Assembly (NCBI GenBank): GCA_964440305.1
Contig: CAYTRS010000002.1
Location: forward strand, 4,048-68,047
Reading direction: 5' to 3'
Length of the DNA: 64,000 nt
Source: an uncultured Bdellovibrionales bacterium
GTDB lineage: Bacteria > Patescibacteriota > Minisyncoccia > Moranbacterales > JAKLHP01
The position numbers were made by a program, and so were the translations under genes. The notes beneath the pieces were generated by a model. The model saw nothing but the letters and a program-made list of their open reading frames with translations, was not told where the DNA came from and did no database searches. Shown here piece by piece: positions 31,248 through 62,120 of the stretch (within the stretch, counting starts at the first letter, position 1; the number at the start of each line of letters is the position of its first letter).

Positions 31248-31330
31248 TGATGATTGTTTTTAATTTTGTGACTACTTGCCATTTTAGGTTCAAACTCTTA
31301 CCTTCTTTAATTTTACTCTTAATCGGTCGC

Positions 31331-31456
31331 AGAGTAAAGAAAAACGGCCCGTATTTCGTCAAATTTCGCCCACAGGGGCGACTTTCGCGTCGAAAGGGTA
31401 TGGAAGTGCCAATATGCCAGAAACCGGAGTAAACCACTCCGGTTTGGCTGATTTCA
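31331..31456 (-). repeat. Conserved intergenic element copy 1 (upstream of the Dcm/GHKL operon), with extra hairpin ccggagtaaaccactccgg
   Basis: agtaaagaaaaacggcccgtatttcgtcaaatttcgcccacaggggcgactttcgcgtcgaaagggt is homologous to sequences at 35876-35935 and 42625-42700; internal hairpin cgccc-acag-gggcg. Confidence 0.55.
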
Positions 31457-31558
31457 TATAAGCGTCGCGAATCTGTCCCAACATTCGCATTTATTAACCG
31501 TCATGCGCTCATTGCGCTCACTTGCAATAAGCATAATCTTTGTTATGCCTACACAAAG

Positions 31559-35126: not shown

Positions 35127-35130
35127 GACC

Positions 35131-35838
35131 TTATTTCAATCTAGCATATTCTTCTTTTAATCTGATTAACATCTCCGGATAATACCGAAAAAAGCTTTGT
35201 ATCTTTTTGATATCGCCGTTGGAAATTTTCCCTTTTTTCATACTGTCAAACTCCAATGTATTTATATCGAACCGCGCATCAATATTTCTTTGCTTTGAAA
35301 TTACATGGAAATGTGCAGGCGGGTGGTCTTTCGGATGCAACTCCATTCTTAAATCACCGGCAGCAGCTATAAATCTTTTTATTTTATAGACCGTGCCATC
35401 CGGCAACACCTGCGTCGAATCAAGGTGTACTTCCAATAAGTCCGCGACACTCCTCTTTAATCTTGGCGCGATTAACTCATCCCTCGTGTTATCCTTGGTA
35501 TTGGTTTTGTCGTCGAGAGTGAGAGCTAGCTCTTTCGGATCAAGATATTTCTTGCAATCTGACCATATAGTGTTTTTATTTCCCTTTTTAAAATTTTCAA
35601 ATTCGGATTCGACTTCAAATAATCCCACAACGACACCAAGCGCGTATTCACCGTCTTTTAATCGAAATACTTCTCCGTAAAAAACAGTGCCGACATGTTT
35701 GTCCCAATCATGCTCTATGAGATAAGGAATATATTTGCTATTGATCTGGTCGGCCATACCCTCAAGCGCATTTTTGGACATACGTTCTCCATGCCTGTCC
35801 ACATGGGTAGTGCTCATTATTCCAGTAATAATCCTCAT
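35131..35838 (-). CDS. Fusion protein: unknown N-terminal domain (~150 aa) plus C-terminal DUF4160 (HxPxHFH) domain
   Basis: C-terminal LRMELHPKDHPPAHFHVISKQRNIDARFDINTLEFDSMKKGKISNGDIKKIQSFFRYYPEMLIRLKEEY matches the DUF4160 pattern (…RDHNPPHFHA…G…I…L…W). 5-nt gap to the next gene. Confidence 0.5.
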   Translation of the reverse strand: MRIITGIMSTTHVDRHGERMSKNALEGMADQINSKYIPYLIEHDWDKHVGTVFYGEVFRLKDGEYALGVVVGLFEVESEFENFKKGNKNTIWSDCKKYLDPKELALTLDDKTNTKDNTRDELIAPRLKRSVADLLEVHLDSTQVLPDGTVYKIKRFIAAAGDLRMELHPKDHPPAHFHVISKQRNIDARFDINTLEFDSMKKGKISNGDIKKIQSFFRYYPEMLIRLKEEYARLK

Positions 35839-35875
35839 TTTTTATAAATGTCAAATCAATTAACCTTAGCTAGGC

Positions 35876-35935
35876 TCTATTTCGCCAAATTTCGCCCACA
35901 GGGGCGATTACCACCCGAAAGCGTCCGAACATGCT
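35876..35935 (-). repeat. Conserved intergenic element copy 2 (upstream of the three-gene operon)
   Basis: ctatttcgccaaatttcgcccacaggggcgattaccacccgaaagcg: 33/34-nt identity with copy 1 core. Confidence 0.55.
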
Positions 35936-35977
35936 TATTTACTGGAAATCGGTCCAAACTCGCTCAAAGCCAAAAAG

Positions 35978-36715
35978 CTATCTTATCGAATTCCAATTAT
36001 CCAAAAAGTAGTCCATCTCATGATCCATATTCCCGAGGTATACGTGATTGTCTCTGAATTTTATATTCACGCGATAGCGTTTGCCTTGTCCCACTTCCAA
36101 TATTGCTTTTTCATGTACCTTCTTTTCTATCTCAAGAAAAGGCAAGATTAAAAAATGATTCTGTTTTTCTCCATGTAAAACAAAAATGTAAAATACACTG
36201 CCACTATTGTGACGTTCGAATGATACTTTTCTGATATCGAAAACATAGGCATCAAAACGGTTTAGGTTGGAGGTTTTCACTTGTATTCCAAAAAGTTGAG
36301 TTCCTTTTACTGCCACGATATCCATTCCGACATCTACGCTCATAATACTGGCGTTGAAACCGCGAAAAAGCAGTTCGCTGCAAACCAAGTGCTCGCCGCC
36401 TTTCCCTGTGAATCCACTTTCTACAACCAGTCTCTCTTCCGCCTCTTTTTCGGCTTCTATAATTTTCGGCGTTTGCTTTACCTCTTTTTTATCATGATTA
36501 AGCGTAAAAGTTCCGGGTGCGGTTTTCATGAAATCCGAGCCCTTGCCCTTGTTTTTAATATCTACCGTAATTTGGGCGTTCATTGAAGCTTCAGGCGTTG
36601 CTCCTTCGGTCTCTAAAATTCCCGATTCCAAAGCCAACCGCGTGATTTCGGTGTAATGCAAAGACTTTCCTGCTTTTTTCAGCACTTTGATTGCTGATTG
36701 TTTGAATGTGTTCAT
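35978..36715 (-). CDS. Mrr_N/HARE-type winged-helix plus Hjc-like PD-(D/E)xK nuclease fusion (putative restriction-type endonuclease), last gene of the Type I R-M operon
   Basis: N-terminal SAIKVLKKAGKSLHYTEITRLALESGILETEGATPEASMNAQI (Mrr N-terminal-like wHTH). C-terminal GEHLVCSELLFRGFNASIMSVDVGMDIVAVKGTQLFGIQVKTSN resembles archaeal Hjc (…ER.L…L…GF.A.R…PDI.A.K……IE.K.S) with E…D…(I/V)QVK. 3-nt gap to hsdR. Confidence 0.5.
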   Translation of the reverse strand: MNTFKQSAIKVLKKAGKSLHYTEITRLALESGILETEGATPEASMNAQITVDIKNKGKGSDFMKTAPGTFTLNHDKKEVKQTPKIIEAEKEAEERLVVESGFTGKGGEHLVCSELLFRGFNASIMSVDVGMDIVAVKGTQLFGIQVKTSNLNRFDAYVFDIRKVSFERHNSGSVFYIFVLHGEKQNHFLILPFLEIEKKVHEKAILEVGQGKRYRVNIKFRDNHVYLGNMDHEMDYFLDNWNSIR

Positions 36716-36718
36716 ATT

Positions 36719-39700
36719 TTATTCTGTAAATTTACCACCCGATATATCAAAGAATCTTTCAAAGAAATTCGTGAGTTTCGTTAAAACACTCTCACGCTTT
36801 TTGGAACGCTCGCCGGTCGGAGAAAAGCGGGATACAGGAGGCAAGACCTTAGTAATAGCAGTACCGGTTGTCGCTACACTACCGTCACGGAAAGCATTTT
36901 TTACAAACGCATAAGTTGCATCGTGATCCAAACCTTCATTGTCAATAATTTTTTCAAGCTCCTCAATCTTTTTCTTATTCACGAATTTCTGCCAATCATC
37001 ATCAACCACCGAATGAATATCAAGTGAAGTGATAAACTGATTAATGAGATCTTTCTTATTGCGTAGTTCAATGCTTGAGTCTATTGCTTTATTAATATCA
37101 ACCAAAATCTCGCGATTTTTATTGTGGTCTTCGTGATATTTCTTGATGAGTCCCAACACAAAGTCAATATTTATTTCTACCTGCTTGATAAGCTCCATCT
37201 CAAACACTAAATCATCGTTAATATTTTCCTGATCAATGTCTGCATTTTTACGAAATTCATTGTACAGATCAATGTACATACTATGATAATCTTGAATATC
37301 GCGCTCAGTTAAAATCTCATTGCCGGCAAACTCATCAAAAGTTGTCAAAATGTTACGAACTCGTAATATCCCGCCATAGAGCTTGATAAAATCTTTCTGT
37401 TTTTGTTCGCCAATGATTTGCTCACCGACTGGGAATTTTTCCAGGAGCTCTGCCACTAAACCTGTATATCCGCGCACTTCCTTGTTACCGTCTTTGTAGC
37501 CGTTATAATACTCCTCGTATGATTTAAGAAGTACAATACCGCCCGCTTCTTTATCGCCAAATAGAGCTATGGATTCGTTTGTCGCTTTCTCTAGGTTACG
37601 GAAGCAAACAATGTTTCCAAAGGTCTTTACGCTATTTAAAATACGATTGGTACGCGAAAATGCCTGCAAGAGTCCATGCAGTCTCAAGTTTTTATCCACC
37701 CAAAGCGTGTTCAGCGTTGTGGCGTCAAAGCCGGTCAAAAACATATTGACCACAATCAGGACATCAATCTCGCGGTTTTTCACTCTCAAACTCACGTCTT
37801 TGTAATAATTTTGAAACTTATCCGATGAAGTATCAAAAGACGTTCCAAACATCGCATTGTAATCAATAATTGCATTATCAAGAAAATCTCTTGAACTCAC
37901 ATCGAGTCCGCTCGTATCTTCTGAGTTTTCGTCTATCATTCCATCGGCGTCTTCATCATTCACGCCGAAGCTATAAATTGTTGCTATCTTGAGTTGTTTG
38001 TCACTCGGTACATTTGTGAGTTGTTTTTTAAATTCGGCATAATACTTTTTTGCGACATCAATGGACGAAACCGCAAATATAGAATTAAAGCCTGCTAATC
38101 TTCTGTCCTTCAGTTTATAAAAACTGTTACGCTTGGTCTTTTGGTCAAAATGTTCGCGAATGTAGCTGACGATATTTGCTAAGCGCTCTGGCGAAGCAAG
38201 TACCGCCTCTCGATCGATATCACTGACTTTCTTATCTTCAATATTTTCAGCTTCACGAACAGTAGAAACATAATCCACTTTAAACGGCAAAACATTTTTA
38301 TCAGCGATGGCATTTACAATGGTGTAGGTATGCAGTTTTTCACCAAAGGCTTGCTCGGTGGTTTTCAAGTCCGGTCGTCCGCTAGAAGACGCGTTCATGG
38401 CAAAAATTGGTGTACCGGTAAAACCAAAGAGGTTGTAATTCTTGAATGTTTTGGTAATAGCGGCGTGCATATCGCCAAACTGTGAACGGTGACATTCGTC
38501 AAAGATAAGCACTACATGCCCATCAAAAATAGTATGCCCGGAATTGCGCCCAATAAAACGATCGAGTTTCTGGATAGTGGTGATGATAATTCGTGCGTTC
38601 GGATTTTCCAATTGTTTCTTCAAAATCGCCGTACTGGTATTACTATTGGCCGCACCTTTCTCAAACTTATCGTATTCTCGCATGGTCTGATAGTCCAAGT
38701 CCTTGCGGTCAACCACAAACATCACCTTATCCACATACGTCAATCTACTCACGAGCTGGGCAGTCTTGAAACTGGTCAAAGTTTTTCCCGATCCGGTCGT
38801 GTGCCAAATGTACCCTCCAGCCTCAACCGTGCCAAGTTTCTTGTAGTTCGTGCTGACTTCAATGCGACTCAATATTCTCTCTGTCGCCACTATCTGATAT
38901 GGTCGCATCGCCAAAAGCTGTCGTTCAGTGGTAAAAACACAATAGCGGGTCAAAATATTTAAAAGCGCGTGTTTGGCAAAAAATGTCTTGACAAAATCCA
39001 TCAGATCCGTAATTGGTCGATTGGTAGCATCTGCCCACCAACTGGTAAATTCAAAACTGCTGCTAGAGCGCTTACCTTTTTTCACCGCACCCTCACTGGC
39101 TTCTTTGATATGCTCCGAACGGACGGTGTTGCTATAATATTTTGTATGCGTGCCATTGGAAATTATAAATAGTTGAACATATTCAAAAAGCCCCGCCGAA
39201 GCCCAAAAACTTTCGCGTTGATAACGGTTAATCTGATTGAATGCCTCGGCAATAGCGACTCCACGGCGCTTGAGCTCGACATGCACCATCGGCAAACCAT
39301 TAACAAGAATCGTTACATCATAGCGATTAGCGCGTTGCCCATCTTCAGTCGCATATTGATTGATGACCTGCAAGCTATTGTCGTGAATGTTGTCTTTTTT
39401 TATAAGATACACATTTTTGACTGTTCCGTCCTCGCGCGTCAGGTTTCTAATATGATCTTCTTGGATCGTTGCTGTTTTTTCTGCAATGCTTTGGTTTGGA
39501 TTGGCAATTTCACTTGCAAAGAAATTCTCCCATTCAGCATCAGCAAAAGTAAACCCATTGAGTTTCTCCAATTGCAAACGGAGGTTCGATACCAAATCAG
39601 ATTCAGATGTGATAGCTAGATATTCGTACGCTTGCGTTTCGAGTTGTTTTATAAAAGCACGCTCCAGATCCGCCTCGCTTTGATAAGAAACACCATCCCG

Positions 39701-39793
39701 TACCCGATCTGCGAGCTTATAATACTCAGCGACAACGGTGCTTTGAGGATTTTCTGCAACTAGATTGTATTTTTTATTATTTGGCATATTCAT
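36719..39793 (-). CDS. hsdR: Type I restriction enzyme R subunit (HsdR)
   Basis: 1024 aa; SF2 helicase motifs TTGSGKTLTSF (Walker A), DECHRSQ (DEAH); HsdR_N-like N-terminus; operon with hsdM/hsdS. Confidence 0.9.
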   Translation of the reverse strand: MNMPNNKKYNLVAENPQSTVVAEYYKLADRVRDGVSYQSEADLERAFIKQLETQAYEYLAITSESDLVSNLRLQLEKLNGFTFADAEWENFFASEIANPNQSIAEKTATIQEDHIRNLTREDGTVKNVYLIKKDNIHDNSLQVINQYATEDGQRANRYDVTILVNGLPMVHVELKRRGVAIAEAFNQINRYQRESFWASAGLFEYVQLFIISNGTHTKYYSNTVRSEHIKEASEGAVKKGKRSSSSFEFTSWWADATNRPITDLMDFVKTFFAKHALLNILTRYCVFTTERQLLAMRPYQIVATERILSRIEVSTNYKKLGTVEAGGYIWHTTGSGKTLTSFKTAQLVSRLTYVDKVMFVVDRKDLDYQTMREYDKFEKGAANSNTSTAILKKQLENPNARIIITTIQKLDRFIGRNSGHTIFDGHVVLIFDECHRSQFGDMHAAITKTFKNYNLFGFTGTPIFAMNASSSGRPDLKTTEQAFGEKLHTYTIVNAIADKNVLPFKVDYVSTVREAENIEDKKVSDIDREAVLASPERLANIVSYIREHFDQKTKRNSFYKLKDRRLAGFNSIFAVSSIDVAKKYYAEFKKQLTNVPSDKQLKIATIYSFGVNDEDADGMIDENSEDTSGLDVSSRDFLDNAIIDYNAMFGTSFDTSSDKFQNYYKDVSLRVKNREIDVLIVVNMFLTGFDATTLNTLWVDKNLRLHGLLQAFSRTNRILNSVKTFGNIVCFRNLEKATNESIALFGDKEAGGIVLLKSYEEYYNGYKDGNKEVRGYTGLVAELLEKFPVGEQIIGEQKQKDFIKLYGGILRVRNILTTFDEFAGNEILTERDIQDYHSMYIDLYNEFRKNADIDQENINDDLVFEMELIKQVEINIDFVLGLIKKYHEDHNKNREILVDINKAIDSSIELRNKKDLINQFITSLDIHSVVDDDWQKFVNKKKIEELEKIIDNEGLDHDATYAFVKNAFRDGSVATTGTAITKVLPPVSRFSPTGERSKKRESVLTKLTNFFERFFDISGGKFTE

Positions 39794-40952
39794 TGAATGT
39801 TAGAAGCTTTCCTTGATAGTATTCATATTGTTGTCTGCGAGCAGAAAGTTCTGCTGGCAAACCAATTGAGATGTCGTTCACCAGCGCTTCAAGTTTATCA
39901 AGTATAGCCACAACGCTGTTCTGATGTGATAGATCAGGAATTTGCACAGTCGCTTTCTTTAAAATATCGTATGAAATAAAGGGCTGTGAACCTGCATGTG
40001 CTTGTGATCTAAAATCTTGTAAAAGTAAAAGATAATAACCATACCTTGGATTAATATTTGTCTTAATTTTACAGATTACTCCGTTATATGTAACAAAGTG
40101 TTTTCCCTTAACCCAATTAACAATACCCGCATATGCGCCAATATGGCCTATTACAGGCGCATCCTCACTATTATATTGATCATGTTGACCAGCTAAACGA
40201 TTACCACCATATACTGGATATTTTCCTCCTGTGTTCGGGATAGTATTGCCTTCGCCATATTGAAAATCGTAAATATCACCTAATGCTTTCCAATCCCCCT
40301 TATTGCTAGACAGCATTAAATCTTTTCTATAATACTCATACTGTTTCTTTCTTGCTTCTAGCTCTGCTTCTAGCTCTGCTTCTAGCTCTGTGAAATTATT
40401 AAGTACCTTAATAATTTCCTCTTGCACCGCAATCGGCGGGAGAGGTATTATAATTTTTGCAAAACGCTTTTTTGAAACATTAAATCGCGTTACACCACTT
40501 GCAGTTTTTGCAATTTGTTTTCTCATCTGTTCATCCCTAAATAAATATTTTGAAAATTCTGGTAAAAGCAGATTGGTATTATGAAAACGAAAACCAAAAC
40601 AGAAACTATTTAGATACAATGAACCATCGGCTTCTTTAGTTAAAACAGATGACATTCCGCACTCGTTCGGTGTTTCGGACGATCCTGTAAATAACACGTC
40701 CCCGTATTCAATTTTGTTCTGGTTTTCATCTTTACTCACCTTTACAAAAGTATTAATATCAGTATTGACTGCAATATTAGAAAAGATATTCATGTAGGTA
40801 ACAAATTTTGCGTTACCATTACTAAAATCATCCTTGCTCTTTCCAGACAGTCCGCCATAAAAATCGCCGAGTTTTCCCAACTCCTTAAACTCCACCCCAT
40901 TCGGGCAGAGTTCGGCGATCAGCTTTTCGATTTTGCTTACATGTTTAGTCAT
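39777..40952 (-). CDS. hsdS: Type I restriction-modification specificity subunit (HsdS), two target-recognition domains
   Basis: Start placed at the in-frame ATG at 40950-40952 (MTKHVSKIEKL…), 1 nt after the hsdM stop. Central conserved coiled-coil ELEAELEAELEARKKQYEYYRKDLM and C-terminal …RRQQYEYYQGKLLTF. Confidence 0.8.
   Translation of the reverse strand: MTKHVSKIEKLIAELCPNGVEFKELGKLGDFYGGLSGKSKDDFSNGNAKFVTYMNIFSNIAVNTDINTFVKVSKDENQNKIEYGDVLFTGSSETPNECGMSSVLTKEADGSLYLNSFCFGFRFHNTNLLLPEFSKYLFRDEQMRKQIAKTASGVTRFNVSKKRFAKIIIPLPPIAVQEEIIKVLNNFTELEAELEAELEARKKQYEYYRKDLMLSSNKGDWKALGDIYDFQYGEGNTIPNTGGKYPVYGGNRLAGQHDQYNSEDAPVIGHIGAYAGIVNWVKGKHFVTYNGVICKIKTNINPRYGYYLLLLQDFRSQAHAGSQPFISYDILKKATVQIPDLSHQNSVVAILDKLEALVNDISIGLPAELSARRQQYEYYQGKLLTFNEYAK
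40351..40390 (-). repeat. 12-bp tandem repeat (GAGCTAGAAGCA)x3 encoding (ELEA)x3 in the HsdS central spacer
   Basis: Plus-strand cttctagctctg repeated three times at 40361-40390. Confidence 0.7.
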
Positions 40953-40953
40953 A

Positions 40954-42564
40954 TTATTTTGTTCCTTCAATATCAGCCACAATTTTATCAATTGAAATAC
41001 GCAGTTCATTTTGCCTTGCGACAATCTGAGCAATTTTTGAGTTGAGAGAAGTGATGTCCACCACCTCACGCATGTCCTCCCTCACAACATAGCTTGATAC
41101 AGCGATATTGTAGTCGTTCTCAGTAATAGCTTTGTTTTCAACAAGTTTGGTAAAATAGTCTGTGTCTTTACGAGTCGTAAACGCTTCCAAAATCTTGAGG
41201 CGATTTGCCTCGCTCAATTTGTTTTTATTGCCACCACGAACAAATTCGGCAGATGCATCAATAAAAAGTGTTTTATTATCCTTCTTACTTTTTTTGAGAA
41301 CGATGATGCAGGTGGCGATAGTAGTGCCGAAAAAGAGATCAGGCGGCAGTTGAATGACCGCATCAACATAATTATTGTCTATCAGATACTTTCGAATTTT
41401 ACCCTCTGCACCACCACGATAAAGAACGCCAGGAAATTCAACAATCGCCGCCGTTCCGCTCGTTGATAGCCATGCAAGCATATGCATGGTAAAAGCGAGG
41501 TCGGCTTTGCTCTTTGGTGCTAATACTCCTGCTGGCGAGAAACGAGGATCGTTAATGAGAAGAGGATTCGCGTCACCCTCCCAATGAATTGAATACGGCG
41601 GATTGGAAACGATAGCATCAAACGGCTCGTCATCCCAATGCTTTGGATCTATGAGTGTATCACCGTGAGCAATATCAAAATTGTTGTAGTTGATGTCGTG
41701 CAGGAACATGTTAATACGACAAAGATTGTAGGTGGTGAGGTTAATTTCCTGTCCAAAAAAGCCTTGCCTAACATTTTCTCTGCCTAGGACCTTGGCAAAC
41801 TTGAGAAGCAAGGAGCCAGAACCACAAGCTGGATCATAGACCTTGTTCACTTCTTTTTTGCCAACCGTTGTGATTTCAGCCAGAAGTTCACTGACTTCCT
41901 GGGGAGTATAAAATTCACCACCAGACTTACCGGCGTTTGAAGCATACATGGTCATCAAAAACTCATACGCATCACCGAAAGCATCTATGGTATTGTCTGA
42001 ATAGTCACCAAGTCGTAGATCGCCAATAGATTCAAAAAGTTTTGTAAGTTTCTGATTTCTTTTTTCTACCGTACCACCAAGTTTATTGGAATTTACATCA
42101 AGATCTGCAAACAACCCTTTGATGTCATCTTCGCTGTCTGCACCCTTTGCGGAATTTTCAATATTTCTAAAAACGGCGGTAAGCGTTTCGTTAAGATTGG
42201 CATCATTACGAGCGTTCTTACGAACATTAATAAAAAGCTCACTCGGTAAAATATAAAACCCTTTTTCTACTACGGTATCGGATCGACCGAACTCTGCTTC
42301 TTTATTGGAAAGTGTGGCATAGTCAAAATCTTTTTTACCAGCACGATGTTCTTCAGTATTAATATGATTGGTCAAATTCTCACTTATGAAGCGATAAAAG
42401 AGTATTCCAAGCACATACTGCTTAAAGTCCCAACCGTCCACGCTTCCACGCAAATCATTGGCAATCTGCCAAATAGCACGATGTAATTCTGAGCGCTCTT
42501 GCTCCTTGGTCATGTTCAAATCTTTATCTTTTTTGCTCATAAAATTATTTTTTTCTAAACGCAA
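40954..42564 (-). CDS. hsdM: Type I R-M N6-adenine DNA methyltransferase subunit (HsdM)
   Basis: NPPY motif (VSNPPYSIHWEG), SAM motif DPACGSGSLL, HsdM N-terminal domain. Confidence 0.9.
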   Translation of the reverse strand: MRLEKNNFMSKKDKDLNMTKEQERSELHRAIWQIANDLRGSVDGWDFKQYVLGILFYRFISENLTNHINTEEHRAGKKDFDYATLSNKEAEFGRSDTVVEKGFYILPSELFINVRKNARNDANLNETLTAVFRNIENSAKGADSEDDIKGLFADLDVNSNKLGGTVEKRNQKLTKLFESIGDLRLGDYSDNTIDAFGDAYEFLMTMYASNAGKSGGEFYTPQEVSELLAEITTVGKKEVNKVYDPACGSGSLLLKFAKVLGRENVRQGFFGQEINLTTYNLCRINMFLHDINYNNFDIAHGDTLIDPKHWDDEPFDAIVSNPPYSIHWEGDANPLLINDPRFSPAGVLAPKSKADLAFTMHMLAWLSTSGTAAIVEFPGVLYRGGAEGKIRKYLIDNNYVDAVIQLPPDLFFGTTIATCIIVLKKSKKDNKTLFIDASAEFVRGGNKNKLSEANRLKILEAFTTRKDTDYFTKLVENKAITENDYNIAVSSYVVREDMREVVDITSLNSKIAQIVARQNELRISIDKIVADIEGTK

Positions 42565-42624: not shown

Positions 42625-42700
42625 TAAAGAAAAACAGCCCTTATTCGGCCAAATTCGGTCCAACGGGCGATTTTTATGCCGAAAGGGTGCAACTACCCCG
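42625..42700 (-). repeat. Conserved intergenic element copy 3 (upstream of hsdM)
   Basis: agtaaagaaaaacagcccttattcggccaaattcggtccaacgggcgatttttatgccgaaagggtg aligns with copy 1. Confidence 0.55.
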
Positions 42701-42747: not shown

Positions 42748-44712
42748 TTACCTGTATTCTTCCAAAAATTCCAGCATTTCTTTCTGCTCGGCAAGAGCTT
42801 CTTTGGCTGAATTTTCGACGGATGCGAGCATGCCTTCAAAAGCCGTCTTATTTTCCATTACGGTTATATCTAGCAAATGCTTCCGAGCCTTCTTGACGTG
42901 AAAAAGTGTTTTGTCGCACATTTCCTGAATCACTTCGTACCAAAATATTTTTTGCAATTCCTTGATTTCTTTTTTCAGATCCAATTCTTTTGTGCTTTTG
43001 TTTCCCCTTCGTCTTGAATGCTTCTTCAAAACCGCCACCACCGTCGGGCTCAGCTGTCCTTTTTTGAGATCATCTTCCCAGTCATGTGCGTCATCATTGA
43101 GCTGCCGGGCGATTATATAATTTTCAAAAAATGCCATCAGCTTTTTTATTTCTGAAGATTCGACATTTCCGATACGAAGATACAGCACGGCCACTGGTCC
43201 TAGTGCATGGCCGATGGAACGATCGGCAAGTCTTTCCAATTTTCCAAAATCAGGCAATTGATTTGGGATCGTCACATGTGATCCGGATATTTTCGCCCGG
43301 CAGTTACTCGTCTCCCAAGCATTGGCCGAATCAATCCTATCCATCGTGTTCTTGAAAAATTGCAAAAATTTTTCATTCTTCGCAAAATTATCGCCGTATA
43401 TTGATGTCAGTTCACGAAGGCAGATATTGGCCAAGGAAAGAAGTTCCCGATTACCCTCGCCATCAAAAAAGTCATCATATATCGTGTATGCCATCCAGCC
43501 ATAGAGACTGGCTGCTCCCAACTCCACCAAGATATTTTCATTCACGGCCTTATTGTTCTTCAATGATTTTTGAAAATAATATGGCAAGAGCGTTATTTGA
43601 TTTGCCCTGTCTCCTTTCAATATCTTTTTTCTGACAGCCAAAAATTTTTCATTGAGCTCAGGGTTGAAATTGGAGAACCTTCGGTCGGTAAAATTGATTA
43701 TTTTCCTGTGTATCTTTTTCGGCTTGTCGTCTATTCCTGCTTTTCGTTTGTTTTCTATCAATTTATCTTTAGCTGAAAATTTCCCCAAAGCCTCTAGGCA
43801 GAATGCTGTTGTAAGCTCTGCGCTGCCTGAATAATGTTTTTGTTTATTTTTAACCAATTCAATTATCAACGGGCATGCCCGCCATTCCCCCTCAATTTGA
43901 TTTTTTAATATATACCCGATGCTTTTCTCTAGTTTTTCTTTTTCGTATCCGAAGTTAATAAGCGCACTGACAGCCAAAGCGGTTTCCAAGGGATTGCCCC
44001 AGGAATCATTCTCAAGCCTCTTTTTCAAAAGGTATGAGATTATTTTGTCTTTCTTCTTTCCCTTGTACCAGCGGGAAATAAAATAAATGACAGAATATTG
44101 AGAATGGTAATACGGAGAAGCGTATTCTCCGGAATCAATCGCTTTTTCAGTGAGCGCGATCAGGCTTTTCAAGGTCACTTCCTGAAGCGAAAGAAAAAAA
44201 GCGATGTTACTGTTGACCGCTAAATCAATGTCTTTCCAGCCCTTGTCCGCATCCGGCGGAGTAAGCCAGCTATAATACGGCCCGCCCTCTTTGCTTTCGC
44301 AAAATGTGAGCAAATTGACGACCTTGGAAACCGCTTTGATAGAAATGCTTTTTGGATCATGCTTAATCAGCGCAACCATGGCGCAACAAGTATCATCCAA
44401 GTCGTCCGGGTACGGCGCGTCCTTGCTTTCAGGGGAATTTCTTTTCCAATAATTCCATGACCAAAAATCGCTTTTTTGACTCAGCAGAAATTTTGCGGAT
44501 TTGCTTTTTACCTTCCCGAGAACCTTTGACTGAGGAAGACTGTCAAGACTCGCCAGGATCAGGCATGCCGGAAATATGGATCGGTTCTCTTTGGGATTTT
44601 CAAAACGCTTCGAGACTGAAATGAAATTGGAAAAACTCCCGTCTTCCTTTTGGGTGCGGGACAGATACTTGATGCCTGATTTTATCGCTTCGCTTACATC
44701 GCTATGATTCAT
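42748..44712 (-). CDS. Terpene cyclase/synthase-like protein: N-terminal squalene-cyclase-like domain (QW motifs, YPDDLDDTCCAMVAL) plus C-terminal helical domain with two DDxxD motifs
   Basis: Start moved to the internal Met (MNHSDV…) to avoid an 89-nt overlap with the kinase. KSGIKYLSRTQKEDGSFS and KSIGYILKNQIEGEW fit the QW motif. YPDDLDDTCCAMVAL matches the squalene-hopene cyclase catalytic segment. IYDDFFDGEG and, about 148 aa later, LNDDAHDWEDD are Asp-rich class I/prenyltransferase-like motifs. Confidence 0.45.
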   Translation of the reverse strand: MNHSDVSEAIKSGIKYLSRTQKEDGSFSNFISVSKRFENPKENRSIFPACLILASLDSLPQSKVLGKVKSKSAKFLLSQKSDFWSWNYWKRNSPESKDAPYPDDLDDTCCAMVALIKHDPKSISIKAVSKVVNLLTFCESKEGGPYYSWLTPPDADKGWKDIDLAVNSNIAFFLSLQEVTLKSLIALTEKAIDSGEYASPYYHSQYSVIYFISRWYKGKKKDKIISYLLKKRLENDSWGNPLETALAVSALINFGYEKEKLEKSIGYILKNQIEGEWRACPLIIELVKNKQKHYSGSAELTTAFCLEALGKFSAKDKLIENKRKAGIDDKPKKIHRKIINFTDRRFSNFNPELNEKFLAVRKKILKGDRANQITLLPYYFQKSLKNNKAVNENILVELGAASLYGWMAYTIYDDFFDGEGNRELLSLANICLRELTSIYGDNFAKNEKFLQFFKNTMDRIDSANAWETSNCRAKISGSHVTIPNQLPDFGKLERLADRSIGHALGPVAVLYLRIGNVESSEIKKLMAFFENYIIARQLNDDAHDWEDDLKKGQLSPTVVAVLKKHSRRRGNKSTKELDLKKEIKELQKIFWYEVIQEMCDKTLFHVKKARKHLLDITVMENKTAFEGMLASVENSAKEALAEQKEMLEFLEEYR

Positions 44713-46192
44713 CTCTAATTGGAATTTCAATGATAAATTTGCTGCCCTGTCCCCAGACGCTCTCAACCTTGATTGTTCCGCCAAAATCATTCTCGACTAT
44801 GTTTTTGACTGTCGTAAGTCCGATTCCGGTTCCCTTTTGCGGACCCTTGGTGGTAAAAAACGGCTCGAATATTTTTTCTTGAATATCTTCGGAAATTCCG
44901 CCGGCCCAGTCTTCAATGGAGATAATCGCCTTTTTGCCGAGCCTGTCCAATTTTACATCTATTTCTTTTTCCCCTTCATCGCTTATTTCATAAGCATCCA
45001 AGGCGTTGAGAATAATATTGATTATCACATGGTTGAACCTCACATCGTTCCCGTAAGTGATGATATCGAAGTCGCCTTTCAAATTTATTTTGACTTTTTC
45101 TGTCGTTAATTTGTAATTTAACAGTTTGGTGATATTTAAAATTTCTTTTTTCATGGAAAACAATGAATCCACTTTTTGATTTTGAAATTGTTTTTTGACG
45201 GCTTCGATATATTCCACCAATAAATCTTTGGTTTCATTGGCTTGTTTCAGATATTCTTTCGTCTGAGTATGCTCCTTCTCGCCAGCATCATTGGCTTTTT
45301 CGATATCAAAAAACAAAAATGTTATATGATTTATCAAATCGTGGAAAAGTCCGGAGGAAATTTTTCCGAACTCGATAAACCTGGCTGTCTGGTTTATTTT
45401 TTCCATTTGGGATTTTTCCAATTCTTTTGTTCTTTCTTGAACTCTCACTTCCAGCGTATCCCTTTCTTCCTTAAGCTCCGCCTCGGATTTTCTAGCGCGC
45501 TTCAATGATCTTTCGATTTCGCGGTTCGACAACCATGAAACGACGGCGATAATGGAAAATATTATAGAATGCCCGATAGGGTCGTTCATTTGAAATAATT
45601 CTGTCTTCCAATAAACTTTAGGGGAAATAATGTGATTCAACTGAAGATAACCAAGAATAAGAGTCACCAAAAGAATAATAAAATTTATCTCAAAAGCGAA
45701 TCGGGTACTGATAAGTATTCCTGATATTACTATCAGAAGGGCAAAAGTCAGTAATGCCATAGGTAAATCTACGCCCCATACATACACGGCATAACTCGCC
45801 GTAATCAAATAAGCATAAACGAAAATATAAGAAGCGATAACAAAAAATCCCTTTCTTGAAAGATAGTGCAAGAACACAAAAAAACAGAACAGCACCAGGG
45901 GCACCAGAGGAGAAATCGCTCTGTCATTATGCCTGACCAAAGAATGGTATAACGAAAAAAGGCTGAATACGCAAAAGAGAACACTTGATCCTGACACTAT
46001 AACATTAAAAATGAACTCTTGACGTTTCAAATCTTCTCCGTTCGATTTCGGTAATAAAAGTTTTCCATATAAAAAACGAGTAACCATAATTAAAAAGCTA
46101 TACTTTCCCTCCTCTTTTGACATATGGTTACTCGTTAAATATCTAAGCGACATCAGTCCACGGATTTGCGACACTGGCCATTGAAACAACAA
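44702..46192 (-). CDS. Sensor histidine kinase (multi-TM sensor, HisKA + HATPase_c)
   Basis: 6-7 N-terminal TM helices; H-box FGKISSGLFHDLINHITFL; G-boxes …GTGIGLTTVKNIV… and GQGSKFIIEIP. Confidence 0.8.
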   Translation of the reverse strand: MLFQWPVSQIRGLMSLRYLTSNHMSKEEGKYSFLIMVTRFLYGKLLLPKSNGEDLKRQEFIFNVIVSGSSVLFCVFSLFSLYHSLVRHNDRAISPLVPLVLFCFFVFLHYLSRKGFFVIASYIFVYAYLITASYAVYVWGVDLPMALLTFALLIVISGILISTRFAFEINFIILLVTLILGYLQLNHIISPKVYWKTELFQMNDPIGHSIIFSIIAVVSWLSNREIERSLKRARKSEAELKEERDTLEVRVQERTKELEKSQMEKINQTARFIEFGKISSGLFHDLINHITFLFFDIEKANDAGEKEHTQTKEYLKQANETKDLLVEYIEAVKKQFQNQKVDSLFSMKKEILNITKLLNYKLTTEKVKINLKGDFDIITYGNDVRFNHVIINIILNALDAYEISDEGEKEIDVKLDRLGKKAIISIEDWAGGISEDIQEKIFEPFFTTKGPQKGTGIGLTTVKNIVENDFGGTIKVESVWGQGSKFIIEIPIRDES

Positions 46193-46370
46193 AAGCGCTC
46201 AATGCCACCGCCCTCCTGATCTTCTTGCACATTAGAATTTTTTTTATGATTTTCTTTTTCATTTCTTTTTTCGTTTAGGTTTTGATAAAAAATAATCCCT
46301 CGACCTGGAATTATAGCCTGCCTGAATTATATCAAAATCAGGTAAAGAAAAAGTAAAGGAATTGTAAAGA

Positions 46371-47042
46371 CTATTCCGGCTCCATTTTATATCCCCTGCC
46401 GTTGACTGTCTGAATGATGCTTGTTTTCCTTCCGCCGTCTATCTTGGCGCGCAGATTCCTGACATGCGATTTCAAAGTCTGAGAAAAAGAATCCAATTCC
46501 ATATCCCACACGTGCTCCATTATATCTATTTGCGTCAATGTTCGTCCGGCATTCTTGGCCAGATACTCGAGAAGCATGAATTCTTTTCGTGTCAAACCGA
46601 TGTTCTTTTTTCCCCGCGTCACTTCGTGATTATTGGTGTTAATAATCAAATCACCGATCTTTATCACTTCTTCGGTCGAAACGGTTGGGCGACGAAGCAA
46701 TGCTTTTACTCTCGACAAAAGCTCCCGAAAAGAAAAAGGTTTGGTCAGATAATCGTCCGCGCCGTTGTCCAAGAGATCCACTTTAGTCGTTATATCCGAA
46801 AGCGCCGAAAGCATTATAATTTTTACCCCTTTCTTTTTCTCGCGAATCTCCCTACAGACTTCCAACCCGTTTTTCTTCGGCAACACGTTATCCAGAACGA
46901 TCAAGTCATAATCGTTGCAGCGGCCGAGGTACGCGCCCTTCTCACCGTCCGTCGCTACATCGACGGCAAAAAGCTCCGCCTCGAGATTGTTCTTGAGAAA
47001 GTCGGAAATTTTCGGATCATCATCTATAACCAAAATTCGCAT
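46371..47042 (-). CDS. OmpR-family response regulator (REC + winged-helix)
   Basis: MRILVIDDDPK…D…LIVLDNVLP (phospho-acceptor Asp); C-terminal trans_reg_C (…LTRKEFMLLEYLAKNAGRTLTQIDIMEHVW…TVNGRGYKM). Confidence 0.85.
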   Translation of the reverse strand: MRILVIDDDPKISDFLKNNLEAELFAVDVATDGEKGAYLGRCNDYDLIVLDNVLPKKNGLEVCREIREKKKGVKIIMLSALSDITTKVDLLDNGADDYLTKPFSFRELLSRVKALLRRPTVSTEEVIKIGDLIINTNNHEVTRGKKNIGLTRKEFMLLEYLAKNAGRTLTQIDIMEHVWDMELDSFSQTLKSHVRNLRAKIDGGRKTSIIQTVNGRGYKMEPE

Positions 47043-47173: not shown

Positions 47174-47521
47174 TTATCTTTTCATGTTTCTTTCGGATCT
47201 TCTTTCTCGTATGCGCACTATATTTTCTTCTCTTCTTGACAAGTATCGGCCGCCTATAATGGTAATTGCGGCAATACTGATTGATACACCTACTAAAATA
47301 AAAAATACCGTGAACAAGCGGCTCATTTCACTGGTAGGATGTAAATCTCCATAGCCAACAGTAGTTAGTGTTGCAACAGTGAAATATAGAGCATCTATCC
47401 ATGTCCACTTTTCCAGAAAATGATAAGCAACAGTCCCAATTATCAACAGCGAAGCTAACGCGCTGGCAGCAGCGATAAAATATGTGCTGATTTTCACATT
47501 TTCTTCGGTGTTTTTTTTCAT
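47174..47521 (-). CDS. Minimal 2-TM KcsA-like potassium channel (115 aa)
   Basis: Selectivity-filter signature TVGYGD preceded by pore helix WIDALYFTVATLT and flanked by two TM helices. Confidence 0.7.
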   Translation of the reverse strand: MKKNTEENVKISTYFIAAASALASLLIIGTVAYHFLEKWTWIDALYFTVATLTTVGYGDLHPTSEMSRLFTVFFILVGVSISIAAITIIGGRYLSRREENIVRIRERRSERNMKR

Positions 47522-47586
47522 ATGATAGACAATAATACAATCACGGAATCTTTTTATTGATTTAATTATATCACAAACTTGCCAGC

Positions 47587-48300
47587 TTATCCTTTTAACG
47601 ATTCATCCCCGTCATTAAAACCGACTCGTATATGAGTAGCATCACAAAACGGCTTATTCGCAGACTTGCCGCAACGGCAAAGTGTTACGCGATTTCTTTT
47701 TTCATAAATATGCCCGTCCGATGATTCCACCTGCACTTTTCCTTTGACCCAAATCGGTCCACTGGCTTGAGCTTGGGGATCTTCTACGACACTTAATGAT
47801 TCATTAAATTCAGGTTCGTAAGCTTTTTTTGTTTTTTTATCCCAAGTCACCAGTCTGCCCGAAGGACAATTGCAAGATTGTCCTATTGCCATTTTTTTCT
47901 TCTGCGGGTCATTGGAATTTTCCGTAAGATTCCATGTGCCTTCTTTTCTGTCGCAAAAACGTCCGCTGGAACAAAGGCTTTGTACGTCGGTAAGCTCAAG
48001 TTCCGGACCTTCTATTTTCAAATCCACCTGCTCAAGATATTTTTTTCTGCCAGCCGTTTCTGTCCCGTCAAAGTTGTCAGCCACGTGCGAACCATCGCAA
48101 TATGGTTTGTTTTTTGATTTTCCGCAACGGCAGAGAGCGTATGCTTCCTGATCTGGATATTTTTCCCCTTTTTTCCACTCGTAGGAAAAACCTTCCTCGT
48201 CAGGCATAATTATTTCTTTTTCCAAAGGCAATTTTCCCGAAACAATATACGGTCCGTTCTTCGAAATAACGACCTTTCCTTTTTTAATTTCTTTTTTCAT
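47587..48300 (-). CDS. CDGSH iron-sulfur domain protein (two CDGSH motifs)
   Basis: CRCGKSKNKPYCDGSH and CRCGKSANKPFCDATH fit C-x-C-x2-S-x3-P-x-C-D-G-(S/A)-H. Extra Cys cluster CNCPSGR. Confidence 0.7.
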   Translation of the reverse strand: MKKEIKKGKVVISKNGPYIVSGKLPLEKEIIMPDEEGFSYEWKKGEKYPDQEAYALCRCGKSKNKPYCDGSHVADNFDGTETAGRKKYLEQVDLKIEGPELELTDVQSLCSSGRFCDRKEGTWNLTENSNDPQKKKMAIGQSCNCPSGRLVTWDKKTKKAYEPEFNESLSVVEDPQAQASGPIWVKGKVQVESSDGHIYEKRNRVTLCRCGKSANKPFCDATHIRVGFNDGDESLKG

Positions 48301-51417: not shown

Positions 51418-52416
51418 TTATTTCTCTATCGCTATCTGATCGCCTTCCTTGAGTCCTGAAACCACTTCCGCCATTCCATCGTCTCCTTCCAGTCCGGTTT
51501 GTATTTCTCTTTTCTCCACAGTTTTTTCTTTAGCATCAGTTAGAATGGTAACGAATTTTTTGTCTCCGTCTTTTTCTATTACTCCCTTGGGAATCATAAG
51601 CACATTGTCTTTTTGGGCCACTTTATCATAAATTGTGCAGTTCATGCCGTATCTGAAACCTACATCCGGATTGTCAACCTGCATTTTGACCACATAATAA
51701 ACGACATTCTGGACGGTAACCGGAGTCGGATCTATTTCTGTTACCCCTGCATCAAATCTTTGATTTTCCGGATAAGCATCAAATTTGACACTTATTTTCT
51801 GGCCGACTCTGACTCCGGCAATATCCACTTCCGGAACCCTGGCTTCAATTCTCATTTCGTCTTCCCTGACAATCTTAATCACCGGGCTTCCGGCCTGGAC
51901 TATTTCTCCTATATTCACATTTTTTTCAGCCACTGTTCCGCTAATCGGCGCATTGATATTGGCATATTGAAATTGTTTGGAAATTTCATCAACAACAGCC
52001 TCGGCTTGTTGGACCGCCGCCTTTTGAGCACTGCGTTGATCCTTAGTATATAAATCATCCTTATCTTTTTGATAAGCCAAAGTTTTTTTCTGGATCGTAA
52101 CCGCTTTTTTTGCTTGTTCCAATTTTTCCGTTAAAGTGCCCGTATCAACACTGGCTAAAAATTGTCCCTGTTTCACTTTGTCCCCAACATCCACTTTAAC
52201 GTTGATGAGCGGTCCGGATATTCGAAAACTGACATTAGCTTCGTCTTTAGATAAATATTCTCCGTTGGCTGAAATGGTCCGGGTTAGCGTCCCCTTGCTA
52301 ACCGGAGTAAGTGTATAATCCGCTTTCTTGTTCTTATTTCCCCAAATTATGGATCCTATCGTTATCACAATAGCGACAACAATGATCCAATAAATTGCTT
52401 TCTTAACTTTTGGCAT
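51418..52416 (-). CDS. Efflux ABC/RND periplasmic adaptor subunit (MacA/HlyD-like)
   Basis: N-terminal TM, lipoyl-like hairpins, coiled coil, beta-barrel; follows the ABC ATPase and permease. Confidence 0.65.
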   Translation of the reverse strand: MPKVKKAIYWIIVVAIVITIGSIIWGNKNKKADYTLTPVSKGTLTRTISANGEYLSKDEANVSFRISGPLINVKVDVGDKVKQGQFLASVDTGTLTEKLEQAKKAVTIQKKTLAYQKDKDDLYTKDQRSAQKAAVQQAEAVVDEISKQFQYANINAPISGTVAEKNVNIGEIVQAGSPVIKIVREDEMRIEARVPEVDIAGVRVGQKISVKFDAYPENQRFDAGVTEIDPTPVTVQNVVYYVVKMQVDNPDVGFRYGMNCTIYDKVAQKDNVLMIPKGVIEKDGDKKFVTILTDAKEKTVEKREIQTGLEGDDGMAEVVSGLKEGDQIAIEK

Positions 52417-52445
52417 ATTTTTTAATTTATAAATTTAAAAATTAT

Positions 52446-53117
52446 TTATTGTAAAATCCCGTCTTTCATATGGATTACCCTATCAACATATTCCTCATCT
52501 TCCGATTCATGAGTTACCAAAATCACGGTTTGATTAAGTTCTTTGTTGAGTTTTCTAAAAAGTTCCAATATTACGGTTGACGTTTCCGAATCCAAGTTGG
52601 CACAAGGTTCGTCGGCAAAAAGAATTTTCGGATTATTGACCAAGGCCCTGGCAACCGCCACTCTTTGTTGTTCGCCTCCTGACATTTCGGACGGAAAATG
52701 TTTTATCCGATCACCAAGTTGAACCATCTCAAGTATTTCTCTGGCACGTTTTTTGCTTTCCCGTATGGAGCAACCTTGCAAAATAAGGGGCAAACTGACG
52801 GCTTCTTCGGCACTGAATCCCGGCAGGAGAGCGTATTCCTGAAAAACATAACCGAAGTGTTGAAGACGAAATTTTGTTTTTTCGCTGTCTGAAAGGGCAG
52901 TCAGTTCTTGCCCTTCAACAATTATTTCTCCTTCGTCCGCGTTATCCAAAAGGCTAAGTTGATGAAGCAAGGTGGATTTTCCACTGCCGCTTCTGCCCAT
53001 AATCGCCACAAATTCCCCTTCCTTTACAGAAAAACTCACGCCCTTAAGAACATGCAGCGGAACTTCCCCTGAATAAGTTTTGTGCAAATTTTTTACGGTT
53101 ATAATATCTTTCTCCAT
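52446..53117 (-). CDS. ABC transporter ATP-binding protein (MacB/LolD-type)
   Basis: Walker A GRSGSGKSTL, signature LSGGEQQRVAVARAL, Walker B ILFADEP, H-loop VTHE. Confidence 0.85.
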   Translation of the reverse strand: MEKDIITVKNLHKTYSGEVPLHVLKGVSFSVKEGEFVAIMGRSGSGKSTLLHQLSLLDNADEGEIIVEGQELTALSDSEKTKFRLQHFGYVFQEYALLPGFSAEEAVSLPLILQGCSIRESKKRAREILEMVQLGDRIKHFPSEMSGGEQQRVAVARALVNNPKILFADEPCANLDSETSTVILELFRKLNKELNQTVILVTHESEDEEYVDRVIHMKDGILQ

Positions 53118-53121
53118 TGTT

Positions 53122-54354: not shown

Positions 54355-54359
54355 TTTGA

Positions 54360-55205: not shown

Positions 55206-55209
55206 AATT

Positions 55210-57677: not shown

Positions 57678-57893
57678 TCAATAATCGATATTCTTCATCT
57701 TTTTGAAAAAACTGCGCCGGGTGCGCGACGCCACTTTCCACCAATTGACTATTTGTTTGTTTTTTATTTCAATCACCACTCTGCCGAATCCTTCTTTCTC
57801 GATGGATGCAAGATCTCTCGCAATCTCCGAAAGCAGTAGGTTGCGTTCCTGCTCGTCCGACATATTCGTTTTTCGTTTATTTGTTCGGTTCAT
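57678..57893 (-). CDS. Small basic hypothetical protein (71 aa)
   Basis: ORF track; overlaps the terminase stop by 17 nt. Confidence 0.3.
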   Translation of the reverse strand: MNRTNKRKTNMSDEQERNLLLSEIARDLASIEKEGFGRVVIEIKNKQIVNWWKVASRTRRSFFKKMKNIDY

Positions 57894-59962: not shown

Positions 59963-59977
59963 AATCGACCGGAGACC

Positions 59978-62055: not shown

Positions 62056-62120
62056 AATTATTTAATATGGCGGATTTTGTTTTTTTGTCCCGCCCTTAGC
62101 GGCAAGGCCGCCGATGCCTG

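Follow-up and report, generated by a model that had tools for sequence, protein, structure and literature searches.

Locus organization

The window analyzed here, that is, the whole 64,000-nucleotide stretch of contig CAYTRS010000002.1 from an uncultured bacterium of the Candidate Phyla Radiation (CPR), encodes a two-domain enzyme in which a class II terpene cyclase domain is fused to a domain with the trans-isoprenyl diphosphate synthase (trans-IPPS) fold. The enzyme gene is the last one in a four-gene module on the reverse strand, which runs in the order response regulator, peptide, kinase, enzyme and comprises, together with a feature 3' of it:

46371..47042 (-), OmpR-type response regulator, the first gene of the module (Response_reg, E = 1.7e-27; Trans_reg_C, E = 3e-22)
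46143..46262 (-), small open reading frame (ORF) of 39 amino acids, MKKKIIKKILMCKKIRRAVALSAFVVSMASVANPWTDVA, a putative precursor peptide with a leader, a variable spacer and a C-terminal PW core
44702..46123 (-), sensor histidine kinase of 473 amino acids (HATPase_c, E = 2.9e-21)
42748..44712 (-), the whole two-domain enzyme, with the class II terpene cyclase domain followed by the trans-IPPS-like domain
42635..42651 (-), weak terminator-like hairpin 3' of the enzyme gene, a possible operon end

The enzyme ORF encodes 654 amino acids followed by a stop codon. An alternative, longer frame (680 amino acids) opens at 44790, but the start at MNHSDV is preferred because the gene-caller models and every homolog of the enzyme begin there; the kinase gene ends 11 nucleotides inside the enzyme gene. 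The protein is 100% identical to one encoded in a metagenome-assembled genome (MAG) of Candidatus Moranbacteria and annotated as “terpene cyclase/mutase family protein.” The hairpin is weak evidence of an operon end, and the promoter and terminator scan returned such sites only at the number expected by chance. The original prediction, made from the sequence alone, had recognized a protein that combines a squalene-cyclase-like domain with an isoprenoid-synthase-like domain; this two-domain observation is confirmed, and every motif quoted in its support was found at its place.

The N-terminal class II terpene cyclase domain

The N-terminal domain (N-domain) and the linker that follows it contain several distinct segments, which are listed below with reference to the drimenol synthase AsDMS and to the confidence of the structural model (predicted local distance difference test, pLDDT):

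43765..44712 (-), residues 1-316, N-domain, single alpha/alpha-barrel class II terpene cyclase (TC-beta)
44629..44682 (-), residues 11-28, QW-like segment 1, KSGIKYLSRTQKEDGSFS, with a sub-threshold SQHop_cyclase_C match over residues 7-29
44368..44412 (-), residues 101-115, class II general-acid motif, YPDDLDDTCCAMVAL, in which D104 and D106 correspond to D331 and D333 of AsDMS
44107..44118 (-), SPYY with Y202, which corresponds to Y427 of AsDMS, the hydrogen-bond partner of the catalytic aspartate
43882..43926 (-), residues 263-277, QW-like segment 2, KSIGYILKNQIEGEW, read straight from the sequence
43732..43764 (-), residues 317-327, inter-domain linker, which alone falls below a pLDDT of 50 and whose length varies among the aligned members

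A family profile built from 43 members matched the class II (TC-beta) domain of AsDMS, a marine enzyme (PDB 9mhs), over residues 11-311 with E = 2.5e-12; a single-sequence search against the PDB produced noise only. The acid motif falls in register in the profile alignment, with fPDDLDtT of AsDMS opposite YPDDLDDT of the enzyme, that is, D331-L-D333-T-T opposite D104-L-D106-D107-T108. The AlphaFold model of the whole enzyme reached a pLDDT of 90. In Foldseek, its C-terminal part matched trans-polyprenyl synthases, and its N-domain matched 9mhs (E = 2.5e-12), 8pak and 8paj, MstE (6sbg, E = 1.4e-6) and squalene-hopene cyclase (SHC; 3sqc); besides AsDMS, MstE and SHC, the best structural matches of the N-domain in the PDB are drimenyl diphosphate synthase and two small proteins of the squalene-hopene-cyclase-like type. 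Catalysis by AsDMS requires D331, D333 and Y427 (PMC12365925), the counterparts of which in the enzyme, D104, D106 and Y202, are conserved in 221, 219 and 220 of the 229 full-length relatives, respectively (these relatives, down to about 35% identity, underlie all conservation counts given here). The reading of the DxDDTA segment as the acid of a class II, protonation-type cyclase is borne out by the profile match to AsDMS and by the register of this motif. On the strength of the profile alignment and the model, the N-domain is assigned as a single-barrel class II terpene cyclase, for which protonation-initiated cyclization is predicted.

The two segments that had been described as QW motifs are present but only QW-like: the SQHop_cyclase_C (PF13243) match scores 20.6 bits against a cut-off of 26.1, and TIGR01787 gives 25.2 bits against 322.7, so that neither hidden Markov model (HMM) reaches its family cut-off. 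In the first segment, Q21 and G25 are invariant in the family alignment A1; the second is kept merely as a majority consensus. Scans of the enzyme against Pfam and NCBIfam, a check proposed along with the original prediction, yielded only sub-threshold cyclase matches. That the curated cyclase HMM scores fall far under threshold would suit another proposal made there, namely, an alpha/alpha-toroid protein that now serves to modify the cell wall or lipids and has nothing to do with terpene cyclization, and glycosyltransferases and MurJ-like genes do lie near some of the related loci. We rate this as the least probable of the readings weighed here, given the specific homology to a characterized class II cyclase, with three catalytic residues both in register and conserved, and given that the neighbors outside the module are not conserved.

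The substrate-binding part of the cyclase domain differs from that of AsDMS, where the diphosphate is clamped by R378, R380 and R425 (PMC12365925). In the profile alignment, these arginines are replaced by W159, D161 and P200 of the enzyme, and of the Arg/Tyr diphosphate clamp Y373, R378 and Y426, just Y426 is retained, as Y201. No HAD phosphatase domain was detected in the enzyme in the Pfam and NCBIfam scan. From this alignment we infer that the enzyme has kept its cyclase machinery intact, unlike the site at which its closest characterized relative binds the diphosphate; the replacement of the clamp arginines fits a non-diphosphate substrate for the N-domain. MstE, one of the structural matches, is a single-domain cyclase that works on a prenyl chain joined to an aromatic head group.

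A further segment of the N-domain, E139...G143-G144-P145-Y146...W149 (residues 139-149, window 44266..44298), is invariant or nearly so, with Y146 present in 229 of 229 relatives. The segment is retained even where the cyclase acid is lost and represents an insertion relative to AsDMS, which lacks the invariant GGPY (143-146); it might form the domain interface or a peptide portal.

The C-terminal domain: a trans-IPPS fold without the isopentenyl diphosphate site

The C-terminal domain (C-domain) is delineated as follows:

42751..43731 (-), residues 328-654, C-domain, all-helical trans-IPPS fold, a putative prenyl-diphosphate-ionizing transferase
43462..43482 (-), residues 411-417, first Asp-rich motif IYDDFFD (D413, D417), where the long helix 392-416 ends
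43069..43104 (-), QLNDDAHDWEDD, invariant Gln and second Asp-rich motif (Q537, D540, D541, H543, D544, D548)
residues 539-548, NDDAHDWEDD, within the second Asp-rich motif

Modeled alone, the C-domain reached a pLDDT of 94, and the top 50 Foldseek matches are all trans-IPPS, namely, synthases of farnesyl diphosphate (FPP), geranylgeranyl diphosphate (GGPP), and hexaprenyl, heptaprenyl and octaprenyl diphosphates, with E-values from 1.6e-5 and template modeling (TM) scores of 0.6-0.7. No class I terpene cyclase is among these 50 matches, and no Terpene_synth HMM match was found for the enzyme. Structure prediction, like the HMM scans, had been suggested as a check, and it recovered both the cyclase fold of the N-domain and the trans-IPPS fold of the C-domain. 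A lack of conservation of the Asp motifs in homologs had been named as a ground for refutation, but the motifs are conserved: D413, D417, D540, D544 and D548, as well as E467 and Q537, are each present in 229 of the 229 relatives. The distance between the two motifs is 127 residues (D413 to D540) rather than about 148 as previously counted. The description of the protein as a class II/class I-like fusion holds as far as the assignment of two domains goes, but “class II/class I synthase” is not the best name for it, with the C-domain closest in structure to chain-length prenyl synthases and itself lacking the residues by which these bind isopentenyl diphosphate (IPP).

The relationship of the C-domain to known synthases is apparent in structure but not in sequence. 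The enzyme has no match to PF00348 at E < 1, and nothing was found when the C-domain profile was compared with the PDB. Run against 1.84 billion representative sequences, this profile produced 1662 matches at E ≤ 1e-3, 1157 of them at E ≤ 1e-30, and the family so delineated is closed, without a tail of matches that reaches the canonical synthases; among the 150 matches listed, the C-domain is almost always C-terminal in proteins of about 650 amino acids. Stand-alone C-domain proteins of about 370 amino acids were considered as possible single-domain relatives and rejected as contig-end fragments: those checked begin inside the cyclase domain, and one fills a 1.1-kilobase (kb) contig.

An hhalign comparison of the C-domain with polyprenyl synthases from related loci is collinear but with a probability of just 1.9%, and is used here for motif register alone, not as proof of homology. 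In this register, DDFFD sits on the synthases' first Asp-rich motif (FARM) and Q-x-x-DDAHD on the second (SARM), FQxxDDxxD, whereas the RRG that follows the FARM and the Lys-bearing (GK) loop that follows the SARM are deleted. No conserved Lys or Arg is present in residues 328-432, the region of the IPP site in real synthases, and the positions that line the pocket are rich in conserved aromatic residues. The absence of the RRG, the GK loop and conserved basic residues indicates that the C-domain is not chain-elongating; judging from the alignment and the model, it probably binds and ionizes a prenyl diphosphate without elongating it. A Gln placed shortly upstream of the SARM is common to the tryptophan prenyltransferases that have this fold (PMC13290415). 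The second motif, D540, D544 and D548 at positions i, i+4 and i+8, differs from the canonical NSE/DTE triad (N/D)Dxx(S/T)xxxE of class I enzymes.

These features bear directly on the possibility of an assembly line in which the C-domain is a true chain-elongating prenyltransferase that feeds the class II domain, as in the fungal PvCPS, which joins a prenyltransferase with a class II cyclase (PMC12393454). The closest structures are indeed FPP, GGPP, hexaprenyl and octaprenyl synthases, and the two DDxxD motifs and the Gln of FQxxDDxxD are in place. Such an assembly line nevertheless appears very improbable: the domain has no PF00348 match, the RRG and the GK loop are deleted, no conserved basic residue remains at the IPP site, separate canonical synthases adjoin the gene in related loci, and the N-domain lacks the diphosphate clamp.

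A conserved four-gene module with a small tryptophan peptide

The genomic context of the enzyme was surveyed in 83 non-redundant loci from metagenomes and species-representative genomes, including one complete genome, that cover Moranbacteria, Parcubacteria, Microgenomates lineages, Doudnabacteria, CPR2 and Saccharibacteria. A homologous histidine kinase is encoded directly upstream on the same strand in 74 of the 78 eligible loci, and 55 of 66 eligible loci have a homolog of the OmpR-type regulator, also upstream and on the same strand. Between the stop codon of the kinase gene and the start codon of the enzyme gene there is either an overlap, as in the window, or direct contact across loci, and in two proteins, P0249 (1018 amino acids, locus L090, 1548..4604) and P0229, the kinase and the enzyme are fused in frame. 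The N-terminal part of the kinase contains 5-6 membrane-spanning segments by hydropathy and no large outside domain. The original prediction had noted an adjoining two-component system; it is there, but it is more than a neighbor, being a near-universal and translationally coupled partner of the enzyme. By contrast, the edge of a defense island, which had been taken as the context of the gene, is incidental: the genes downstream of the enzyme differ in every other genome compared, and, more generally, the neighbors outside the module are not conserved in other genomes.

The module also includes a previously unannotated gene that had been missed. In 71 of 72 loci, the interval that separates the regulator gene from the kinase gene contains an ORF of 31-40 amino acids, and equivalents are found in L090 and L091. 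The consensus of 73 peptides is M-x-x-[LV]-[IL]-K-K-[IV]-L-T-D-K-x-x-R, followed by a variable stretch, [SAG]-P-W, and 1-6 terminal residues. Across 43 aligned peptides, the M, L, R and W are invariant. Exactly one Trp is present in 70 of the 73 peptides, with Pro before it in 63; it is the second to seventh residue counted back from the C-terminus, and the spacing from the leader Arg to the Trp is 18-19 residues in 62 of the 73. The peptide matches no Pfam or NCBIfam family. A search of 5.8 billion sequences with the peptide profile retrieved 77 proteins, all of 34-52 amino acids, with E-values down to 9e-12, and none with a name more informative than “hypothetical protein.”

About 10 of the 229 relatives, including both kinase fusions, have lost the class II acid along with a portion of the barrel and retain every invariant residue of the C-domain. 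The two of these loci that were examined, L090 and L091, still encode the peptide. The retention of the peptide where the cyclase acid is lost suggests that the peptide travels with the C-domain and the kinase; on this comparison, the cyclase step resembles a dispensable addition.

In 15 of the 83 loci, and additionally in L091, a canonical polyprenyl synthase (PF00348; best matches to short-chain and GGPP synthases) is encoded within or next to the module, either between the regulator and the kinase or just 3' of the enzyme. A subgroup of these synthases lies between the regulator and the peptide (L006, 5292..6329; L018, 397..1419; L046, 3329..4372; L091, 2193..3266), and those of L006, L018 and L046 have unusual motifs, LIHDD(V/I/F)ED...ERR(H/S), with a second motif DDxMN instead of DDxxD; this inserted subgroup may represent a dedicated donor synthase. 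In L006, which comes from a Patescibacteria genome, a Caroten_synth (PF04240) gene is located 3 kb from the module (1080..1919, (-)).

A fused enzyme of this type had seemed an unexpected oddity in a single streamlined genome, but the family comprises at least 1157 clusters at 50% identity that span CPR lineages. Squalene-hopene cyclases have been reported as absent from CPR (PMC7306690), and we found no paper that describes the enzyme family or the module in these bacteria. Sequence titles that name Gammaproteobacteria, Methylomirabilota, Sulfotelmatobacter, Vitreimonas and Dormiibacterota were considered as a sign of spread beyond CPR and rejected, given the CPR-type module and peptide in these contigs. 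The ten loci concerned (L019, L022, L027, L033, L041, L051, L052, L056, L060 and L082) all carry this module and peptide and have a guanine-cytosine (GC) content of 35-44% in nine of the ten cases (54% in L082); the non-CPR labels on these MAG contigs are probably wrong.

Functional interpretation

The explanation that we favor, with moderate confidence, is that the enzyme is the modifying enzyme of a four-gene peptide-signaling module, the chemistry, export route and signaling role of which we infer from the features described above. The C-domain would bind a C10-C20 prenyl diphosphate via Mg2+ at the two invariant Asp-rich motifs, ionize it, and pass the prenyl group on to the one conserved Trp of the peptide, close to its C-terminus; the conserved leader, set off from this Trp by a constant number of residues, would hold the peptide in position. 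In the N-domain, D106, backed by D104 and Y202, would then protonate the prenyl chain, by now bound to the peptide, at its distal double bond and so start its cyclization. The lipidated peptide, probably after removal of the leader, would be released and sensed by the membrane kinase, which would signal to the OmpR-type regulator. A peptide maturase of this kind would account for the missing IPP site, the missing diphosphate clamp of the cyclase, and the presence of the peptide, as well as for the coupling and fusions with the kinase, the neighboring prenyl synthases, and the subclade that lacks the cyclase acid. The original prediction had allowed for a genuine specialized-metabolite enzyme, and here the conserved Trp-peptide gene in the module points to modification of a peptide instead of production of a free metabolite; overall, that prediction was largely right about the domains, misjudged the context, and missed the peptide gene.

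Several observations weigh against this interpretation. The C-domain has no sequence-detectable relation to ComQ, Ord1, StheQ or PF00348, and its second motif appears as the full Q-x-x-D-D-x-x-D where ComQ and StheQ have Q-x-x-N-D; the D540/D544/D548 triad would also suit a class I terpene synthase that ionizes a free diphosphate. The regulator is of the OmpR rather than the ComA type, the gene order is unlike that of comQXPA, and the small peptide could instead be an accessory of the kinase. A conserved exporter or leader protease adjoining the module is not evident. Polyprenyl synthase queries and Pfam scans of the ORFs detected no isoprenoid supply gene in the 64-kb window, and the mevalonate pathway has been reported in only a few Parcubacteria (PMC6107057).

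Some of the same features would be expected of a bifunctional synthase of free terpenoids, in which the class II domain cyclizes FPP, GGPP or a longer diphosphate and the C-domain ionizes the product to yield a cyclic terpene or membrane lipid. Under this reading, the two-component system would just regulate the gene or sense the membrane, as DesK/DesR does for a desaturase, and the peptide would be an unrelated kinase accessory. Both sets of catalytic motifs are intact; helix periodicity suggests that D540, D544 and D548, at i, i+4 and i+8, could act like an NSE/DTE-type metal triad; the pocket of the C-domain is aromatic-rich, and polyprenyl synthases are encoded nearby; and a kinase with 5-6 membrane segments and no outside domain suits membrane sensing. 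We nevertheless consider a free-terpenoid synthase fairly unlikely. It leaves unexplained why 71 of 72 loci encode a peptide whose Trp is invariant and lies at a fixed spacing from the leader, the N-domain lacks the diphosphate-binding arginines of AsDMS, the top 50 structural matches of the C-domain include no class I cyclase and no terpene synthase HMM matches the enzyme, and relatives without the cyclase acid retain the peptide along with the C-domain.

The close association with the kinase raises the further possibility that the enzyme is a non-catalytic, regulatory partner, with the C-domain binding an isoprenoid diphosphate, for example, from the lipid-carrier pool, and reporting to the kinase in a manner comparable to PII-NtrB. 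The translational coupling and the natural kinase-enzyme fusions suggest physical association, and the motifs of the C-domain are more strictly conserved than the cyclase acid. However, about 96% of the members retain the class II acid together with the partner Asp and the Tyr, which argues for catalysis, and the Trp peptide would be left without a role; we know of no precedent for such an arrangement and regard it as quite improbable. Even when pooled, the readings of the protein as a regulatory adaptor, an elongating prenyltransferase or a re-purposed toroid are clearly unlikely.

Comparison with known systems

The peptide-maturase interpretation has its closest counterparts in two groups of known systems, and the module is best filed as a combination of the two, namely, fused prenyltransferase-cyclase maturases and ComQXPA-type signaling, in a new sequence family. 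The first group is represented by ChrPC and NctPC, in which a Trp prenyltransferase (in ChrPC, resembling trans-isoprenyl diphosphate synthases) is fused to an MstE-like single-domain cyclase, and the attached prenyl group is cyclized on a ribosomal peptide (Hubrich et al., Chem 2024, according to a 2026 review, PMC13290415). Compared by description only, these enzymes and the one in the window share the same two folds in one polypeptide, the Gln before the SARM (Q537, 229 of 229), and a Trp peptide encoded alongside. Here, by contrast, the cyclase occupies the N-terminal half of the enzyme, the length of the precursor is just about 37 amino acids, a kinase and a regulator are tied into the module, and the hosts are CPR bacteria.

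The second group includes Bacillus ComQ, an IPPS-like enzyme that prenylates ComX on a Trp located third to fourth, or more broadly second to fourth, from the end; the product is sensed by the multi-pass kinase ComP, which signals to ComA (PMC5331326, PMC4008528). PalQ/PalX are likewise accompanied by a kinase, PalP (PMC10853753), and StheQ/StheX, with the StheX Trp second from the end, carry the theme to Chloroflexi. The second motif of ComQ and StheQ, Q-x-x-N-D (a pseudo-SARM, NDxxx), binds no metal, and replacement of the Asn with Asp in ComQ cuts activity by about 90%. In common with ComQXPA and its PalQ and StheQ relatives, the module groups four neighboring genes on one strand, the products of which are an IPPS-fold enzyme whose first motif is Asp-rich, a short precursor in which the position of the Trp near the C-terminus agrees, a multi-pass membrane histidine kinase and a response regulator. 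The differences are no less clear. The C-domain has no detectable homology to ComQ, IPR033965 or PF00348, and has a complete DDxxD as its second motif, D540 taking the place of the Asn of ComQ and StheQ; the enzyme carries a fused class II cyclase; the regulator is of the OmpR and not the NarL type; the order is regulator-peptide-kinase-enzyme; and the peptide leader is strongly conserved, whereas ComX has none.

Each domain also has relatives outside these groups. With AsDMS and MstE, the N-domain shares the single alpha/alpha-barrel class II domain without a gamma domain, and both its DxD(D/T)T acid motif and the Tyr that partners it stand in register; it differs from AsDMS in having an IPPS-like partner domain rather than a HAD phosphatase, in the replaced arginines, and in the GGPY insertion at 143-146. 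The PF00348 synthases resemble the C-domain in their fold, in a pair of DDxxD motifs that face each other from two helices, and in the FQxxDDxxD Gln; unlike these synthases and PvCPS-type fusions, the C-domain has no HMM match, lacks the IPP-site residues, and forms a closed family. The two-step logic of the proposed mechanism is shared with the drimentine pathway, in which DmtC1, a transferase of the isoprenoid-synthase fold, prenylates a Trp-derived indole and the class II cyclase DmtA1 then cyclizes the chain (PMC6173783). There, however, two separate enzymes act, the prenyl group goes to a diketopiperazine, the product of a cyclodipeptide synthase, rather than to a ribosomal peptide, and DmtA1 is an integral membrane protein.

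Implications for CPR bacteria

The CPR account for a large share of the diversity of bacteria. Most of these tiny-celled organisms, which have minimal genomes and live attached to hosts, are uncultured, and their regulatory and biosynthetic capacity is thought to be scant, yet the module is kept from Moranbacteria to Saccharibacteria, which suggests that it is likely to be central to their life; it may serve population or host sensing. More tentatively, with slightly less than even confidence, we suggest that CPR bacteria widely carry a dedicated cell-to-cell or symbiont-to-host signal in the form of a terpene-cyclized ribosomal Trp peptide that is made by a previously unrecognized enzyme family and read by a co-translated, in some cases fused, kinase. 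If so, the CPR would have its first defined pheromone system, one that would extend terpene-cyclized peptides from secondary metabolism to signaling; the enzyme would represent a new sequence family of peptide prenyltransferase-cyclases that, unlike ComQ, keeps the full second metal motif. Together with the subclade that lacks the cyclase step, this full motif would help trace the conversion of prenyl synthases to peptide-modifying enzymes. For annotation, the protein clusters concerned (at least 1157) are labeled “hypothetical” or “terpene cyclase/mutase family,” and the peptide has no curated family.

Other features of the window

Two stretches of the window stand out by their higher GC content. 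The first of these, at 3576..16242 (-), is a block of phage structural and lysis genes with a GC content of about 0.45 compared to about 0.39 in the middle of the window; it includes the following genes and is probably a prophage or prophage remnant of a CPR bacterium:

7455..8111 (-), SU10 adaptor
8117..9763 (-), N-acetylmuramoyl-L-alanine amidase
11280..12458 (-), SU10-type major capsid protein
14383..16242 (-), portal-like protein

The second stretch, 58000..64000 (GC content 0.43-0.47), at the opposite end of the window, goes with a GpA-type terminase large subunit at 57877..59439 (-).

Directly downstream of the enzyme gene, a defense-type island (28481..42564, (-)) encodes a type I restriction-modification system (HsdM/HsdS/HsdR), HARE-HTH and DUF4160 proteins, an 823-amino-acid DUF2254-like protein, a C5 cytosine methylase, and a 577-amino-acid HATPase_c_3 protein; the length of HsdS varies between strains that share an identical enzyme. 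Just upstream of the regulator (47174..48300, (-)) are the genes for a 115-amino-acid, two-helix potassium-channel-like protein and for a 237-amino-acid protein with two CDGSH iron-sulfur domains and Fer4_19, neither of which is conserved beside the module in other genomes. In the region 52446..56313 (-), a patatin-like phospholipase (54360..55205) is adjoined by a CrtC-like double-lipocalin protein (55210..56313) and by a MacB-type ABC/FtsX/HlyD transporter (51418..54354); this group could be a lipid-scavenging set in an organism that is unable to make lipids. A protein that combines Schlafen/AlbA_2 and HATPase_c_4 domains (22352..23746, (-)) is a candidate defense or regulatory ATPase.

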